From the IMG/VR virus record IMGVR_UViG_2778261316_000004: DNA of 35,056 nucleotides. One strand, given 5' to 3'. This document shows, piece by piece, positions 9,009-26,227 of this stretch (within the stretch, counting starts at the first letter, position 1; each line of letters starts with the position of its first letter). The DNA is from a virus (lineage: Duplodnaviria; Heunggongvirae; Uroviricota; Caudoviricetes). The notes beneath the pieces are model-generated. The model did no database searches and had not been told where the DNA came from. It worked only from the letters and a program-made list of their open reading frames with translations. The translations under genes and the position numbers were made by a program.

Positions 9009-9090
9009 CGCGCGCTTGCTCTTGAAATGAGAAAGTTAATTGGTTAACTTTTTAAGCAGGGTCAACGCACTGTTGAGCAAAGGAGTGAGT

Positions 9091-9738
9091 ATGATTAGTA
9101 CAGGACATATTGTCGCTGTTGGCGCGGTTGATGCAGGCGAAGTAAAATTACTGGGTACCGGTTTTGTCATCTCTAATGACAAGATAATTACATCTCGGCA
9201 TGTAATTCGTGGTTTTGCTTTTAATATAATAATTTCTCCTTCGGAGATTAATGATTTTAATCTTTATCAAGATACTACAATCAACAGAATTCAGTATTAT
9301 TCTGTTGAGGTAATTGATGAGGATCCAATCAGAGATCTTTGTGTTTTGAAATTTAAGGCAGGATCGTTTTCTGGGCCCAATCTTATCCTCTCAAGCTTAG
9401 ATAAAATATCTATTGGTGAGGAAGTTGGTGTTTTGGGTTACCCTCATTGTAATGAGGGTAGAAAAGTACTTACATTCCAAACAGCAAGAGTCGGTGCTAA
9501 GGTTTTACTTTCGAGTAATAATGTAAAGTCTAAACATGCAGTTATAAATTTGCAATCAAGACCAGGTCAATCAGGTTCAGTTCTTTTTAATTTAAAAAAT
9601 AATGAGGTTGTCGGGGTGTTAGTTGGTGCTTATACAAATAATGCAGCGGGCTCTGTATTTATTGGAGGAATTAATCCTGCAGCTTTGCATCAAACTACTT
9701 ATGCGATTTCAGCTGAATATATTAAGGATATGTTATGA
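9091..9738 (+). CDS. Trypsin-fold (chymotrypsin-like, PA clan) serine protease, 215 aa
   Basis: ORF track 9040..9738; ATG at 9091 after AGGAG. Predicted triad in His-Asp-Ser order: H37 (TSRHV), D82 (RDLCVLKF), S161 (GQSGS). AT-rich relative to flanks. Confidence 0.8.
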   Translation: MISTGHIVAVGAVDAGEVKLLGTGFVISNDKIITSRHVIRGFAFNIIISPSEINDFNLYQDTTINRIQYYSVEVIDEDPIRDLCVLKFKAGSFSGPNLILSSLDKISIGEEVGVLGYPHCNEGRKVLTFQTARVGAKVLLSSNNVKSKHAVINLQSRPGQSGSVLFNLKNNEVVGVLVGAYTNNAAGSVFIGGINPAALHQTTYAISAEYIKDML

Positions 9739-10181
9739 TCTCTATACCAAATGAAGATGCTGAAGCTTGGCTATCTACCTTAAAAAAATATCAATCATCA
9801 ACTATTAAATCCTTTCTCGAGCAAGGTACGGAAGAGCAAGCTCTTGAATCATGGTTAACAGCTTCAGGCCCAAGTTTAACATCTCCATTTGGAGGGGATG
9901 CTTCCAGCATGCCGGGTAAAAAGGCATTTGTTGATCAGTTTAAGCAAGAGTTTAGAGCTTTTGTTTGTGGAAGCGATAAATATGTCAAAGAGAGGAATGG
10001 ATTGGGTGAGCTTGGCGGGGATATTAAAACCTATCTTGTCAGTGTTATTTCAAGTTCAATTGCTACCTCTTTAGGTACTACTACAGTATTTATTGCTCCC
10101 GCTGTTGTAATCATGCTTATTACGATCTCAAAAATGGGTCTTAATGCGTGGTGTTCATTAGAAACCGTAAAAGACTCTTAA
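9735..10181 (+). CDS. Small partner protein (148 aa) with C-terminal hydrophobic, likely membrane-spanning, segment
   Basis: ATG at 9735 overlaps the protease stop (ATGA); hydrophobic stretch YLVSVISSSIATSLGTTTVFIAPAVVIMLITI. Confidence 0.7.
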   Translation: MISIPNEDAEAWLSTLKKYQSSTIKSFLEQGTEEQALESWLTASGPSLTSPFGGDASSMPGKKAFVDQFKQEFRAFVCGSDKYVKERNGLGELGGDIKTYLVSVISSSIATSLGTTTVFIAPAVVIMLITISKMGLNAWCSLETVKDS

Positions 10182-20850: not shown

Positions 20851-21448
20851 TCTGCTGCCACCGGGTTCAACGCCACTGGAGCGCCGACTGGCGCAAACCT
20901 GCAGCGGGATTTCTGATCTGCAGGTGTCACTGCGTGACTTGTGGAATCCGGCAACCTGTCCGGTCAGTTTCCTGCCTTATCTCGCCTGGGCGTTCTCTGT
21001 GGATCGCTGGGACGAGGGCTGGACAGAAAGCGTCAAACGCCAGGTAGTGAAGGATGCTTTTTATATTCATCAGCACAAAGGAACCACCAGTGCCGTACGG
21101 CGGGTGGTGGAGCCGTTCGGCTTCCTGATCCGCATTATTGAGTGGTGGCAGACCGGAGAAACACCGGGCACGTTTCGCCTGGACATTGGTGTGCAGGACC
21201 AGGGCATCACTGAAGATACCTATCTGGAACTTGAGCGACTGATAAGCGATGCCAAACCATGTAGCCGTCACATGATCGGCATGTCCATCAATCTGCAGAC
21301 CAGCGGCCCGCATTGGGTGGGAGCCGCCAGTTATCTTGGCGAAGAAATCACGATCTATCCGTATATCAACGAAACAATTATTTCCGGCGGCACCGCGCAT
21401 GAAGGCGGGGCGGTCCATGTTATTGACACAATGAGAGTGAATCCATGA
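20843..21448 (+). CDS. I: Baseplate/tail protein I
   Basis: 201 aa ORF; position between J and H. Confidence 0.8.
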   Translation: MNSLLPPGSTPLERRLAQTCSGISDLQVSLRDLWNPATCPVSFLPYLAWAFSVDRWDEGWTESVKRQVVKDAFYIHQHKGTTSAVRRVVEPFGFLIRIIEWWQTGETPGTFRLDIGVQDQGITEDTYLELERLISDAKPCSRHMIGMSINLQTSGPHWVGAASYLGEEITIYPYINETIISGGTAHEGGAVHVIDTMRVNP

Positions 21449-22788
21449 GCACAAAATTTTATACCCTGCTGACGGATATTGGCGCGGCGAAACTTGCCAG
21501 CGCCGCCGCGCTCGGTGTGCCGCTAAAAATTACCCATATGGCGGTGGGCGATGGCGGCGGAACATTGCCGACGCCGGACGCAAAGCAGACGGCACTGGTA
21601 AATGAGAAACGCCGGGCTGCGCTGAATATGCTCTATATCGACCCGCAGAACAGCAGCCATATTATTGCTGAACAGGTGATCCCTGAAAATGAGGGTGGTT
21701 GGTGGATACGTGAAGTGGGTCTGTTTGATGAGTCCGGGGCATTGATTGCCGTAGGCAACTGCCCGGAAAGCTATAAGCCGCAACTGGCTGAAGGCAGCGG
21801 GCGCACCCAGACCGTGCGCATGGTGTTGATTACCAGCAGCACGGACAATATCACCCTGAAAATCGACCCTGCCGTCGTGCTGGCAACCCGCAAGTATGTG
21901 GATGACAAGGTACTGGAGCTGAAGGTGTTCGTGGATGATAAGATGGCAAAACATCTTGCCGCACCGGACCCGCATTCACAGTATGCACCCAAAGAAAGCC
22001 CGACATTGACCGGAACACCCAAAGCGCCAACGCCAGCGGAGGGGAATAACACCACGCAGATTGCGACCACCGCGTTTGTTCAGGCGGCACTGATGGCCCT
22101 TATTAATGGTGCGCCAGCCACACTGGATACGCTGAAAGAAATTGCCGCTGCCATTAATAATGACCCGAAATTCAGTACCACCATTAACAATGCGCTGGCA
22201 CTGAAAGCGCCGCTGTCAAGTCCGGCACTCACCGGAACGCCAACAGCCCCCACTGCCGCACAGTCGGTTAACAATACACAGATTGCCACTACGGCTTTTG
22301 TGAAATCGGCGATTGCGGCAATGGTGGGTTCTGCACCTGCGGCACTGGATACACTGAACGAACTGGCGGCGGCGCTGGGGAATGACCCGAACTTTGCCAC
22401 GACAATGCTTAATGCACTGGCAGGTAAACAACCGCTGGACAATACGCTGACTAATTTGAGTGGAAAGGATGTAGCTGGTCTTCTCGCATACCTTGGTTTA
22501 GGAGCAGGCTCAGCGTTACCCGTTGGTATACCTGTTCCGTGGCCTTCAGCCACACCGCCAACAGGCTGGTTGAAATGCAATGGTGCGCCTTTTTCTGCCG
22601 AAGAGTATCCGGAACTGGCAAAAGTTTATCCGACAAATGAATTGCCAGATTTACGTGGTGAGTTTATTCGTGGGTGGGATGATGGACGAGGTGTGGACAA
22701 TGAGCGAGCATTATTAAGCAGGCAAGAGGCTACAAACTTTTCTCAGTATGCCGGAAATCTAGGCAATGGTGCGGGGGCACACAATTAA
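21445..22788 (+). CDS. H: Tail fibre protein H (constant N-terminal part plus currently expressed variable C-terminus)
   Basis: 447 aa ORF; internal tandem repeats; hix-like crossover site inside the gene at about 22485..22510. Confidence 0.85.
   Translation: MSTKFYTLLTDIGAAKLASAAALGVPLKITHMAVGDGGGTLPTPDAKQTALVNEKRRAALNMLYIDPQNSSHIIAEQVIPENEGGWWIREVGLFDESGALIAVGNCPESYKPQLAEGSGRTQTVRMVLITSSTDNITLKIDPAVVLATRKYVDDKVLELKVFVDDKMAKHLAAPDPHSQYAPKESPTLTGTPKAPTPAEGNNTTQIATTAFVQAALMALINGAPATLDTLKEIAAAINNDPKFSTTINNALALKAPLSSPALTGTPTAPTAAQSVNNTQIATTAFVKSAIAAMVGSAPAALDTLNELAAALGNDPNFATTMLNALAGKQPLDNTLTNLSGKDVAGLLAYLGLGAGSALPVGIPVPWPSATPPTGWLKCNGAPFSAEEYPELAKVYPTNELPDLRGEFIRGWDDGRGVDNERALLSRQEATNFSQYAGNLGNGAGAHN
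22003..22434 (+). repeat. Two tandem copies of a roughly 70 aa repeat within the H tail-fibre shaft
   Basis: Repeats TLTGTPKAPT...NNTTQIATTAFV...DTLKEIAAAINNDPKF and ALTGTPTAPT...NNTQIATTAFV...DTLNELAAALGNDPNF seen in the translation. Confidence 0.6.
22485..22510. promoter_or_regulatory. Left inversion crossover site (hix/gix-like) inside H
   Basis: Reverse complement reads CTCCTAAACCAAGGTATG, containing the AAACCAAGGT core as I recall it from hix; imperfect inverted repeat of the right site. Confidence 0.5.
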
Positions 22789-22926
22789 TTTTCATGATGG
22801 CATCGTCGGAAATCAGTCAGGATTTTCACGATTTAATCTCACCAGTGACGCTGTGGGTAATGGTGTGAATTTTGTTGCTGTCAGACCGCGAAATATTGCA
22901 TTTAACTATATCGTGAGGGCTGCATA

Positions 22927-23529
22927 ATGGATAACGCCGTATTAAATAGCGAGCTTATTGCCACGAAGGCGGGGAATATTACTGTTTATAACTATGATGG
23001 TGAGACGCGGGAATATATTTCTGCATCAACTGAATATCTTGCAGTGGGTGTCGGTATTCCAGCATATTCCTGTTTAGACGCTCCTGGTACATCTAAGGCT
23101 GGTTATACAATTTGCCGTTCTGTGGATTTAAAATCATGGGAATATGTGCCAGACCATCGCGGTGAAATCGTCTATAGCACCGAAACGGGAGATGCCAAAG
23201 AAATCACAGCACTAGGCGACTATCCCGAAAATACAACCACTATCGCTCCGTTAACGCCACATGATAAATGGGATGGTGAGAAATGGGTGACGGATACCGA
23301 GGCACAGCATAGCGCCGCACTAGACGCGGCAGAAGCACAGCGCCAGTCACTGATTAATGCAGCAATGGCTTCCATTAGTCTGATTCAGCTGAAATTACAG
23401 GCCGGACGGAAGTTGACGCAGGCAGAAACAACCCGACTTAACGCCGTGCTGGATTACATTGACGCGGTGACGGCAACAGATACCAGCACCGCGCCGGATG
23501 TCATCTGGCCTGAACTGCCGGAGGAGTAG
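22927..23529 (+). CDS. G: Tail fibre assembly chaperone (gpG type)
   Basis: 200 aa ORF after H; C-terminus resembles that of the minus-strand paralogue (LDYIDA...TSTAPD). Confidence 0.8.
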   Translation: MDNAVLNSELIATKAGNITVYNYDGETREYISASTEYLAVGVGIPAYSCLDAPGTSKAGYTICRSVDLKSWEYVPDHRGEIVYSTETGDAKEITALGDYPENTTTIAPLTPHDKWDGEKWVTDTEAQHSAALDAAEAQRQSLINAAMASISLIQLKLQAGRKLTQAETTRLNAVLDYIDAVTATDTSTAPDVIWPELPEE

Positions 23530-23944
23530 GCCATTCAATATCTGGTGCACTGGAAGTATCGACCAGCTCCAGTGCGTCCAGATAATCCAGCCACAAATTA
23601 TATTGCACCAGTTCCTCACCTTTCAGACGACCAATTGATGCTTTACCTGGCCATTGTTTACTGTTGATGTATTCGTTGGCCTGGTTAATCAATTGCTGCT
23701 TTTTAGTTTCGGCTGATGCAATTTGTTCTTCACGTGTTGGTGGAGGAATATCTGCCCATGCAGGCAGTCCATCCTCTCCGACACATCTGTATTTTCCTTC
23801 TGGTGGTGTATCATAGAAATATTCCCTGAAAATTACTTCGTCTATATCAACACCTTTTTCTTCAGGCCATTCACCTTTTTCAACATAAAGAGACTGAAGT
23901 TCGTAAGGATATGCCAGGTTGTTTACGTACAGATATTTCATCAT
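23501..23944 (-). CDS. Alternative tail fibre assembly chaperone (G'), expressed after inversion
   Basis: 147 aa minus-strand ORF, convergent and overlapping G; shared C-terminal motif LDYLDALELVDTSSAPD. Confidence 0.75.
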   Translation of the reverse strand: MMKYLYVNNLAYPYELQSLYVEKGEWPEEKGVDIDEVIFREYFYDTPPEGKYRCVGEDGLPAWADIPPPTREEQIASAETKKQQLINQANEYINSKQWPGKASIGRLKGEELVQYNLWLDYLDALELVDTSSAPDIEWPTPPAVQAR

Positions 23945-24318
23945 TACCAGCCCTTAGCGAAAAACACACCACCTTCAAGACCATAATTGCAGTGAGCTAT
24001 GAAGCCGGTAGTGCTCCAGTTGGTCGCCCCCCACATATTCCCGCCCCCGAAACCACCATCGAACACAATTATAATGTCCGGTGTCTGTGTAAATGGAATT
24101 GGGAATGAAACATTGGCGGATACAGGCTCGTTTTCACCAGGAAAACGAATTCCTCCCCACTGTTCAATTGAACCATCTGGCATTTTTCGCCAGCCTGAAC
24201 CTGATGCATATGATGACATATCAGGTATCTGATTTTCCCCTGTTCCCACATTCCGTTTTGCCGCTTCTCCCAAACCAACGTTTAAGAAAATACAGAGGTA
24301 ACAGCTAACTGGCATCAT
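23944..24318 (-). CDS. Alternative variable C-terminal segment of tail fibre H (Hv'); has no independent function until fused to H by inversion
   Basis: Minus-strand ORF runs through the right crossover site; codons LGLGE at the site are in the same frame relative to the TTGGTTT core as LGLGA in H, so inversion gives an in-frame fusion. Confidence 0.6.
   Translation of the reverse strand: MMPVSCYLCIFLNVGLGEAAKRNVGTGENQIPDMSSYASGSGWRKMPDGSIEQWGGIRFPGENEPVSANVSFPIPFTQTPDIIIVFDGGFGGGNMWGATNWSTTGFIAHCNYGLEGGVFFAKGW
24265..24290. promoter_or_regulatory. Right inversion crossover site (hix/gix-like) beside the invertase gene
   Basis: CTCCCAAACCAACGTTTAAG read at 24267..24286; inverted relative to the site in H. 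Confidence 0.5.
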
Positions 24319-24345
24319 CTCCGGTTTTTATTCAGGGGGATGATC

Positions 24346-24912
24346 ATGCTTATTGGCTATGTACGCGTGTCAACAAATGACCAGAACACCGATTTGCAAC
24401 GTAATGCACTGAATTGCGCGGGATGTGAGCGGATTTTTGAGGACAAAATCAGTGGCACTAAGTCCGACAGACCGGGGCTGAAAAAACTACTCAGGACACT
24501 ATCGGCAGGAGACACGCTGGTTGTCTGGAAGCTGGACAGGTTGGGGCGCAGTATGCGGCATCTTGTTACGCTGATAGAAGAGTTGCGCCAGCGTGGTGTG
24601 AATTTCAGAAGCCTGACTGACAGTATTGATACCAGCACCCCAATGGGCCGTTTCTTTTTTCATGTCATGGGTGCCCTGGCTGAAATGGAACGCGAACTGA
24701 TAGTTGAACGTACCAGGGCAGGGCTGGCTGCAGCTCGTGCCAAAGGTAGAGTAGGTGGACGCCGTCCTAAGTTGACCACCGAACAGTGGGCACAGATTGG
24801 ACGTTTACTCGAGGCCGGAGAATCAAGACAGCGTATTGCACTGATTTTTGACGTGGGCGTTTCTACCATTTATAGAAAATTTCCGGCAAATAAGATCAAT
24901 GAATCCCCCTGA
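24346..24912 (+). CDS. Serine site-specific DNA invertase (Gin/Hin/Cin/Pin family)
   Basis: ORF track 24340..24912; ATG at 24346; N-terminus MLIGYVRVSTNDQNTDLQRNAL with catalytic Ser; C-terminal HTH; close to Mu Gin from memory. Confidence 0.85.
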   Translation: MLIGYVRVSTNDQNTDLQRNALNCAGCERIFEDKISGTKSDRPGLKKLLRTLSAGDTLVVWKLDRLGRSMRHLVTLIEELRQRGVNFRSLTDSIDTSTPMGRFFFHVMGALAEMERELIVERTRAGLAAARAKGRVGGRRPKLTTEQWAQIGRLLEAGESRQRIALIFDVGVSTIYRKFPANKINESP

Positions 24913-24960
24913 ATCAGCATTATGTTGATTATCCCTGCAAGCAGACAAATACCGTTATTT

Positions 24961-24978
24961 TGTGTGAATAACGACACA
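24961..24978. promoter_or_regulatory. Candidate late-promoter dyad TGT-N12-ACA upstream of FI
   Basis: TGTGTGAATAACGACACA read at 24961..24978, about 86 bp before the FI start. Confidence 0.45.
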
Positions 24979-25054
24979 ACTGCGCTTAGCTGTTTGTCAG
25001 GCACAATCACTTCAACATAGGGCGAAGCCTAATCCAATCAGGAGGTTCGCCACT

Positions 25055-26227
25055 ATGGCTCAGGATTACCACCACGGGGTGCGCGTTGTTGAAGTCAACG
25101 AAGGCACCCGATCTATTACCACGGTGAGCACCGCCATCGTGGGTATGGTCTGCACGGGCGATGATGCCGATGCAAAAATGTTTCCTCTTAATAAACCCGT
25201 GCTGATCACTGATGTGCTGACTGCCAGCGGTAAAGCGGGTGAGTCAGGTACTCTGGCCCGTTCGCTGGATGCCATCGCTGACCAGGCAAAACCCGTGACC
25301 ATTGTTGTGCGTGTGCCGCAGGGTGAAACGGAAGACGAAACCACGACCAATATTATCGGCGCAGTGACTGCTGAAGGTAAAAAAACAGGTATGAAAGCCC
25401 TGTTATCTGCCCAGTCACAGCTCGGCGTTAAACCGCGCATTCTCGGCGTGCCAGGCCACGACACCAAGGCGGTAGCTACTGAGTTGCTGAGCGTGGCGCA
25501 AAGCCTGCGTGGATTTGCTTACCTGTCAGCGTATGGCTGCAAGACAGTGCAGGAGGCGATCACTTACCGCGAAAACTTCAGCCAGCGCGAAGGGATGCTG
25601 ATCTGGCCTGACTTTACTGGCTGGGACACGGTGCTGAATGCCGAAGCAACGGCATATGCCACCGCCCGTGCGCTTGGTCTGCGCGCCAAAATTGACGAGC
25701 AGACCGGATGGCACAAAAGCCTGTCCAACGTGGGCGTGAACGGTGTCACCGGAATTTCTGCAGATGTGTTCTGGGATCTGCAGGACCCGGCAACCGATGC
25801 AGGTCTGCTGAACCAGAACGACGTCACCACGCTTGTGCGTAAAGACGGTTTCCGCTTCTGGGGTTCCCGCTGCCTGAGTGATGACCCGCTCTTTGCCTTC
25901 GAAAACTACACCCGCACGGCGCAGGTGCTGATGGACACGATGGCAGAAGCACACATGTGGGCGGTGGATAAACCGCTTAACCCGTCGCTGGCCCGCGACA
26001 TTATCGAAGGTATCCGCGCCAAAATGCGCAGCCTGGTCAGTCAGGGCTATCTCATTGGTGGTGATTGCTGGCTGGATGAGTCGGTGAACGACAAAGACAC
26101 GCTGAAAGCCGGAAAACTCACCATCGACTACGACTACACGCCAGTGCCGCCACTTGAAAACCTGATGCTGCGTCAGCGCATCACCGATCAGTACCTGGTG
26201 AATTTCGCCAGCCAGGTCAGCGCGTAA
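25055..26227 (+). CDS. FI: Contractile tail sheath protein (gpFI)
   Basis: 390 aa ORF with AGGAGG RBS. Confidence 0.9.

Follow-up and report, generated by a model that had tools for sequence, protein, structure and literature searches.

A tail-fibre segment between Gin-type crossover sites, found in both orientations in a P2-like prophage of Escherichia coli

Downstream of the constant part of the tail-fibre gene H in an Escherichia coli prophage lie a second fibre tip, encoded on the opposite strand, and a gene for a serine invertase, which raises the question of whether the DNA in between inverts and what an inversion would change in the fibre. The window, i.e., the whole stretch of DNA that we analysed (35,056 bp), carries this prophage integrated next to ybjL. 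Its late genes follow the P2-type order V-W-J-I-H-(G)-FI-FII-E-T-U-D, together with the portal/terminase genes Q-P, an integrase gene and ogr. Pfam matches include Tail_P2_I, the P2 H N-terminal domain and the sheath; the map of open reading frames shows integrase, CI repressor and ogr, adjoining ybjL, and the best phage matches of the region belong to Peduoviridae. The prophage is apparently complete and P2-like. We read the region, with a probability of about 0.93, as a site-specific inversion switch of the Pin/Gin/Cin type that belongs to the tail module of this complete prophage. The type of system is a textbook one (Mu G, P1 C, e14 P), and the same kind of switch is already known by experiment from P2-like E. 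coli prophages, inversion having been demonstrated in those of EPEC by sequencing and PCR (PMC4272514). The locus comprises the following elements.

21445..22494, plus strand: constant N-terminal part of H (Sc, 350 codons; Pfam Phage_tail_fib, 1-150, E = 1e-64)
22481-22506, inside H: left 26-bp crossover site, TTCTCGCATACC TT GGTTTAGGAGCA
22495..22927, plus strand: variable tip Sv, StfE-like, now fused to H (collar domain, E = 6e-14)
22927..23529, plus strand: assembly chaperone for Sv (U/G), TfaE-like (Caudo_TAP, E = 5e-32; phrog_105)
23501..23944, minus strand: assembly chaperone for Sv′ (U′/G′; Caudo_TAP, E = 6e-33)
23944..24279, minus strand: alternative tip Sv′ (gp53-like C-terminal domain, Gp53-like_C, E = 5e-7)
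24265-24290: right 26-bp crossover site, TTCTCCCAAACC AA CGTTTAAGAAAA
24346..24912, plus strand: serine DNA invertase of the Pin/Cin/Gin/Hin group, 188 aa (Resolvase PF00239, E = 2e-53, and HTH_7 PF02796)
24364..24435, 5′ end of the invertase gene: enhancer-like sequence (similarity to the P1 cin enhancer)

The initial annotation had listed a Gin/Hin-type invertase gene, convergent fibre-assembly genes G and G′, an alternative H tip on the minus strand and two imperfect inverted repeats; all of these are present, with coordinates that agree to within a few bases (the left site had been put at 22485..22510). The two crossover sites (22481-24290) have 1,784 bp between them, filled by two convergent pairs, each consisting of a tip and its own assembly chaperone, and the invertase gene adjoins. 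The chaperone genes U and U′, whose products are 88% identical to TfaE and 60% identical to TfaP of e14, respectively, converge such that their 3′ ends overlap by 29 nt. Searches of NCBIfam returned no equivalog for the invertase, the chaperones or the tip, just sub-threshold matches to other serine recombinases, and a scan of 22400-25100 for promoters and terminators found sites no more numerous than in shuffled controls.

The central dinucleotides of the two sites, TT on the left and AA on the right, define an inverted orientation, and the longest inverted repeat in 22000-25000 has its arms at 22478-22507 and 24264-24293. At a tolerance of up to 3 mismatches, the consensus TTCTCNNAAACCNNGGTTTNNGAGAA matches exactly twice in the 35,056 bp, at these very sites, while none of 100 shuffled sequences contained any match. 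In keeping with the proposal that the sites are of the hix/gix/cix type, they can be aligned to cix, gix and pix and show the conserved AAACC-NN-GGTTT core and matching central dinucleotides; the right site agrees at 25 of 26 positions with the pix site adjoining pinE of e14. Between themselves, left and right sites match at 19 of 26 positions and share a perfect stretch of 7 nt. Since the window contains no site beyond these two, a multiple-inversion system or shufflon such as p15B Min or R64 is ruled out; the enzyme, moreover, is a serine invertase and not an Rci-type tyrosine recombinase.

The invertase (an additional in-frame ATG lies at 24340) aligns end to end with the structures of Mu Gin (3UJ3/4M6F, E = 1e-92) and is 86.7% identical to PinE, 77.8% to Cin and 75.1% to Gin. 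The catalytic Ser in MLIGYVRVSTNDQ (YVRVSTNDQ) is conserved, and at the position where Val replaces Met in the Fis-independent Gin variant that was crystallised, the enzyme keeps the wild-type Met. The sequence at 24364..24435 aligns without gaps with the annotated cin enhancer of P1 (NC_005856 31678-31749) at 78% identity, and two 15-mers of the form G-N13-C lie at positions 22 and 71 of the invertase gene, the same as in gin; it is probably a Fis-dependent recombinational enhancer, which we annotate as putative. From what is known of the family, the adjacent invertase would be the catalyst, and its action would depend on Fis and on the enhancer that lies within the 5′ end of its own gene. 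Pin-family invertases complement each other, so that the catalyst could be another invertase in the same cell. The segment would then be inverted in trans by a Pin-family enzyme of the host (from e14, Qin, Rac or another prophage), with the adjacent gene dispensable or inactive, as is conceivable given that PinQ of Qin inverts the e14 P segment (PMC12529663) and that the right site is so close to the site in e14. We consider this unlikely, however: the adjacent gene is of full length and encodes every hallmark motif, its exact product is present on at least 1000 contigs, and the gene occupies the canonical position, with the enhancer-like sequence some 90-160 bp from the right crossover site.

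The left site lies within the coding sequence of H, where codon 350 (CTT) holds the crossover TT, and relatives of either orientation are all collinear with the window up to 22507. Sv, the tip presently fused to H, carries a +1 insertion, a run of five Gs (G5, at 22773-22777) where P1-like homologues have four, as do 99.86%-identical prophages, in which H is intact at 493 aa. The additional G creates a stop codon at 22786-22788, by which H is truncated to 447 aa, and the last 53 codons of the tip lie in another frame (22766-22927); with the frameshift repaired, the tip is 54% identical to StfE of e14. This lesion had escaped the initial annotation. We rejected sequencing error as its sole explanation, given that several independent samples and assemblers yielded the same 447-aa product, on 9 contigs in all, and that G5 is found in both orientations. 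The contigs of the source lineage were found by look-ups of exact proteins, including chaperone U; exact-pattern scans for the region of the G-run in genome_contigs and viral_contigs gave no matches.

Sv′ is silent in the present orientation and is fused in frame to Sc upon inversion. The reading frame is the same at both sites, as had been claimed, but the supposedly common L-G-L-G is not: the alternative segment reads N-V-G-L-G, so that just G-L-G is shared. Flipping the segment in silico at the central TT/AA yields the predicted H fusion with a different tip, an intact protein of 460 aa with an open frame throughout, which reads A-Y-L-G-L-G-E across the joint. In public data, this very protein, identical residue for residue, exists as WP_248790106.1 on five contigs.

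Whether the segment does invert can be read from publicly available assemblies whose DNA is identical to that of the window, and here, too, the inverted state, the absence of which would have counted against the initial proposal, was found. An E. coli contig (L020; GCA_013063145.1) is 100.000% identical to the flipped window over 10,603 bp with no mismatch, and a second one (L023) is 100% identical to it over 6,101 bp, while five others (L015, L017, L018, L019 and L022) match the window as given at 100% identity. The recombinant junction 60-mers are present exactly in L020, and the exchange took place within the 7-nt core that both sites share, TTGGTTT (22493-22499). E. coli prophages at 92-98% identity likewise divide into two classes by orientation, and their breakpoints lie at 22490-22507 and 24264-24281. 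As flipped and unflipped copies are otherwise identical, inversion at these sites is real and recent. Short-read assemblers can misjoin at inverted repeats, and RecA-mediated recombination between repeats might produce a similar picture; either origin of the apparent inversion is extremely improbable, as the stretch shared by these sites (7 nt, in a 19/26 match) is too short for assembler k-mers (k141 contigs) or for RecA, and complete, closed genomes, too, have their breakpoints precisely at the invertase core.

A pseudogene tip could also mark the decay of the system, in which case both orientations would stem from old events and the segment would no longer be inverting. We think that highly improbable, considering that not one substitution separates flipped from unflipped copies over 10.6 kb. 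Moreover, the G5 mutation occurs in both orientations, so that at least one inversion took place after it arose, and contigs made of the invertible segment alone (L027, 22493-24278; L028, 22514-24270) suggest mixed orientations in the sequenced cultures.

On the reading that we prefer, a site-specific switch, the serine invertase (24346-24912) would pair the two 26-bp sites and cut both at the central TT and AA. The 1,784-bp segment would be rotated and the constant 350-codon part of H left unmoved, so that the orientation would choose which of the two tips is joined to H, with the gene for the matching chaperone directly downstream of each. In the state as given, Sc would be followed by the collar-domain, StfE-like tip and the TfaE-like chaperone, the extra G ending H at 447 aa; in the flipped state, Sc would continue into the gp53-like tip, followed by its own chaperone, to give the complete H of 460 aa. 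By analogy with the family, the two tips would differ in adsorption specificity and the switch would be one of host range. Since the one-base insertion truncates H in the present orientation, only the flipped state encodes a full-length fibre in this lineage; the switch would toggle between a truncated and a complete fibre rather than between two working tips, and "switching between two host ranges" may not necessarily apply here. It is improbable, if worth stating, that the G-run (G5 here, G4 in 99.9%-identical relatives) adds a further on/off control, a mutational one, to the inversion. If it did, one orientation would give fibre-defective particles, or the truncated H would have another role, e.g., as a decoy or as an adsorption blocker like StfE2 of e14, and the invertase would act as an ON/OFF switch for infectivity and not as a choice between two hosts.

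Amongst the known systems, the P segment of e14 with PinE, in E. coli K-12, resembles the locus in its invertase, in the site on the invertase side and in the TfaE-like chaperone, as well as in its layout (constant fibre part, tip, chaperone, convergent chaperone and tip, invertase) and size, reported as 1,797 bp (PMC12529663). The half of the segment with Sv and U is 87-88% identical in DNA to StfE/TfaE. Unlike e14, a cryptic and defective remnant of lambdoid/Mu-like type, the host element here is a complete P2-like prophage by all appearances; the second pair of tip and chaperone differs as well, with a chaperone 60% identical to TfaP and a tip that is gp53-like and not StfP-like, and the central part of the StfE-like tip is replaced, being closest to cassettes of P1-like phage-plasmids. 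In e14, StfE2, made by inversion of the P segment, blocks the adsorption of T2 (PMC12529663), and with the homology of the Sv/U half to StfE/TfaE in mind, one might suppose that the main role of the switch is outside the virion, a chimeric fibre made in the lysogen blocking the adsorption of other phages. Such a role is very unlikely for this locus, as the StfE-like tip is the frameshifted one. Furthermore, the prophage appears to be complete and P2-like, and H belongs to its late operon, which in such prophages is silent in lysogens.

The locus also resembles those of Mu (G/Gin) and P1 (C/Cin), with which it shares the enzyme family (75-78% identity), the 26-bp AAACC-NN-GGTTT sites, the enhancer-like sequence in the 5′ end of the invertase gene and the logic of Sc with Sv/U against Sv′/U′. 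At 1.8 kb, however, the segment is smaller than those of Mu (3 kb) and P1 (4.2 kb), its tips and chaperones are distantly related to theirs or not at all, and P1 has its invertase on the opposite side with respect to S. A third group of related systems consists of the loci of P2-like prophages and phages (EPEC E2348/69; 500465-1, Cartapus and KP12), which lie between H and FI, have the same invertase and have flanks 92-99% identical in DNA to those in the window; Salmonella Fels-2 presumably has a comparable invertible tail-fibre locus. What sets the present locus apart from the other P2-like ones is the particular combination of tips and the G5 frameshift of this lineage, while one EPEC locus has three sites, in a shufflon-like arrangement, instead of two.

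Beyond correct annotation, the significance of these findings is slight. Genes that are annotated separately in a widespread E. coli prophage as "phage tail protein", "gp53-like domain protein" and "recombinase family protein" form one invertible fibre switch, and it is a frameshift that gives this lineage its 447-aa H. The switch is probably what causes contig breaks at codons 345-350 of H in many draft assemblies. For the prediction of phage-host pairs and the engineering of P2-like particles, the locus identifies swappable pairs of tip and chaperone, with a joint at a defined stretch of 7 nt.

The window is an essentially complete Escherichia coli P2-like prophage. Its left end carries an integrase gene; it also has a CI-type repressor gene, replication gene A, portal and terminase genes and a P2-type tail module. 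At the right end, ogr adjoins the host genes ybjL, ybjM and grxA, and these three match E. coli chromosomes at 99.8% identity. Between replication gene A and the portal gene, a hotspot of low GC content (37%) holds a cargo of two genes (9040-10181), encoding a trypsin-like protease and a 148-aa partner; by PADLOC they correspond to the candidate defence system PDC-M35 (A: E = 5e-91; B: E = 6e-57); upstream of this pair, in the same interval, lies a DinI-like gene (7777-8082; phrog_189, E = 2e-30). The region between H and FI is a classical tail-fibre inversion switch, the features of which are listed below.

Features of the switch region (genes from the ORF map and Pfam)
21445-22788, plus strand: tail-fibre gene H, with a P2 tail-fibre N-terminal domain and a collar domain
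22481-22506: left 26-bp site, TTCTCGCATACC-TT-GGTTTAGGAGCA
22927-23529, plus strand: chaperone (Caudo_TAP)
23501-23944, minus strand: second chaperone (Caudo_TAP)
23944-24318, minus strand: gp53-like fibre tip ORF
24265-24290: right 26-bp site, TTCTCCCAAACC-AA-CGTTTAAGAAAA
24340/24346 (start) to 24912, plus strand: serine recombinase (resolvase/HTH_7)
From 25055: sheath gene

At their 3′ ends the convergent chaperone genes share 29 nt (23501-23529); phage 500465-1 and E. coli relatives are annotated with the same overlap. In relatives, a 124-aa “gp53-like domain protein” is annotated whose ATG lies outside the invertible segment (24279-24318 in the window, minus strand) and whose ORF crosses the right site; rather than an independent gene, it is probably an artefact of annotation stemming from the silent tip.

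The serine invertase gene that the initial annotation placed at 24346..24912 encodes a resolvase/HTH_7 protein by Pfam, with the Gin, Pin and Cin invertases as relatives (86.7% identity with e14 PinE, 77.8% with Cin and 75.1% with Gin). The Mu Gin crystal structures 3UJ3 and 4M6F align with it end to end (E about 1e-92); it retains the active-site Ser, within MLIGYVRVSTNDQ, and the wild-type Met is present where the Fis-independent Gin crystal variant has Val. Nucleotides 19-90 of the gene (24364-24435) are 78% identical, ungapped, to the annotated enhancer inside P1 cin, and they include two G-N13-C 15-mers positioned as in gin; judged by its sequence, this stretch is probably a Fis-dependent enhancer. 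A perfect 12-nt inverted repeat, ATTCAGGGGGAT / ATCCCCCTGAAT, flanks the invertase ORF (24330-24341 and 24903-24914), one arm lying over the Shine-Dalgarno region and the other over the last codons. Most P2-like relatives that were checked keep the repeat (L001, L002, L003, L008, L010 and L011), and e14, P1 and Mu lack it; mRNA pairing and a cassette boundary are possible roles.

The longest inverted repeat within 22000-25000 has its arms at 22478-22507 and 24264-24293. Both 26-bp sites are imperfect palindromes, in inverted orientation, with TT and AA at their respective centres. They share the AAACC-NN-GGTTT core with the annotated P1 cixL and cixR, the Mu G-segment boundaries and the e14 sites, and the right site is identical at 25 of 26 positions to the e14 site beside pinE. 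Scanning the 35 kb with the family-derived consensus TTCTCNNAAACCNNGGTTTNNGAGAA (up to three mismatches) returned 22481-22506 and 24265-24290 only, and shuffled control sequences gave no match. The inverted repeats with a hix-like core proposed at H and at 24265-24290 are thereby borne out.

Exchange at the central dinucleotide, performed in silico, makes H read through A-Y-L-G-L-G-E into the gp53-like tip, yielding a 460-aa protein; its ORF ends in a stop codon overlapping the second chaperone gene's start. The in-frame fusion of H to another tip, as had been predicted, exists in public collections as exactly this protein (WP_248790106.1; five contigs), while the 447-aa H of the window as given is WP_249819231.1 (nine contigs, several samples). 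E. coli prophages 92-98% identical to the window fall into two orientation classes: in one, C 236-04A and phage 500465-1, the window as given is matched collinearly; in the other, MS10860, EC100 and Ecol_542, it is the flipped sequence that is matched collinearly, through both junctions. Against the window as given, alignments of this second class are interrupted at 22490-22507 and 24264-24281. Among the contigs fetched for encoding the window's own chaperone, the flipped window is 100.000% identical to L020 (GCA_013063145.1) over 10,603 bp and 100% identical to L023 over 6,101 bp, and the window as given occurs at 100% identity in L015, L017, L018, L019 and L022. Since the two states occur on DNA that is otherwise unchanged, the inversion is recent. 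The exchange point lies within the 7 nt common to both sites (TTGGTTT, 22493-22499), central dinucleotide included. The initial observation is confirmed by these data, and its interpretation supported.

Contigs L027 (22493-24278) and L028 (22514-24270) contain nothing but the invertible segment, and hundreds of “partial” H proteins of 345-349 aa from draft genomes stop just before the site, which lies at codon 350. Assemblers make such breaks when reads hold both orientations. These ends are only suggestive of mixed orientations, because cassette repeats elsewhere in a genome could act alike; they suggest that the switch regularly breaks short-read assemblies.

Overlooked in the initial annotation, H is broken in the given orientation. 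Aligned to homologous P1-like phage-plasmid cassettes, the G-run at 22773-22777 has five Gs in the window versus four in the cassettes; because of the extra G, H stops at 22788 after 447 aa, and the conserved C-terminal end (...RPRNIAFNYIVRAA) falls in another frame. Every contig that matches the window exactly carries the G5 allele, whichever the orientation, and the allele occurs in several independent samples, whereas prophages 99.86% identical (L021, L024 and L026) have G4 and an intact H of 493 aa; this marks the frameshift as a genuine mutation of the lineage rather than a one-off error. In this lineage, a full-length fibre is encoded solely by the flipped state.

The segment has 46-50% G+C versus 55-59% in the surrounding late genes, and other prophages carry the same cassettes behind different constant parts, the homology stopping at the sites. 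The half now joined to H is related to e14 StfE/TfaE (87-88% DNA identity); the other half differs from e14 StfP/TfaP. For the middle of the tip now joined to H (about 22692-22885), the nearest match, at 91%, is a tip cassette from P1-like phage-plasmids of about 96 kb, where it lies in inversion regions with multiple cassettes (L005, 2830-3267; L006, 3001-3426); this indicates that P2-like and P1-like elements have exchanged cassettes.

Mu G/Gin, P1 C/Cin and e14 P/Pin are switches of the same kind, and the records of phages 500465-1, Cartapus and KP12 carry annotation of the same arrangement. For the P2-like prophages of EPEC E2348/69, sequencing and PCR have demonstrated inversion (PMC4272514), and invertases with flipped adjacent genes have been noted as common at this P2 hotspot (bioRxiv 10.1101/2024.10.15.618418). 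Inversion of the homologous e14 segment is reported to give rise to a chimeric fibre protein that prevents T2 from adsorbing (PMC12529663); by analogy, a chimeric fibre might block adsorption here too, but we consider this role improbable because H sits in the late operon of a complete prophage. The tail-fibre switch described here belongs to a known class of system; both of its own states are already in public data, and the frameshifted tip is its sole unexpected detail.
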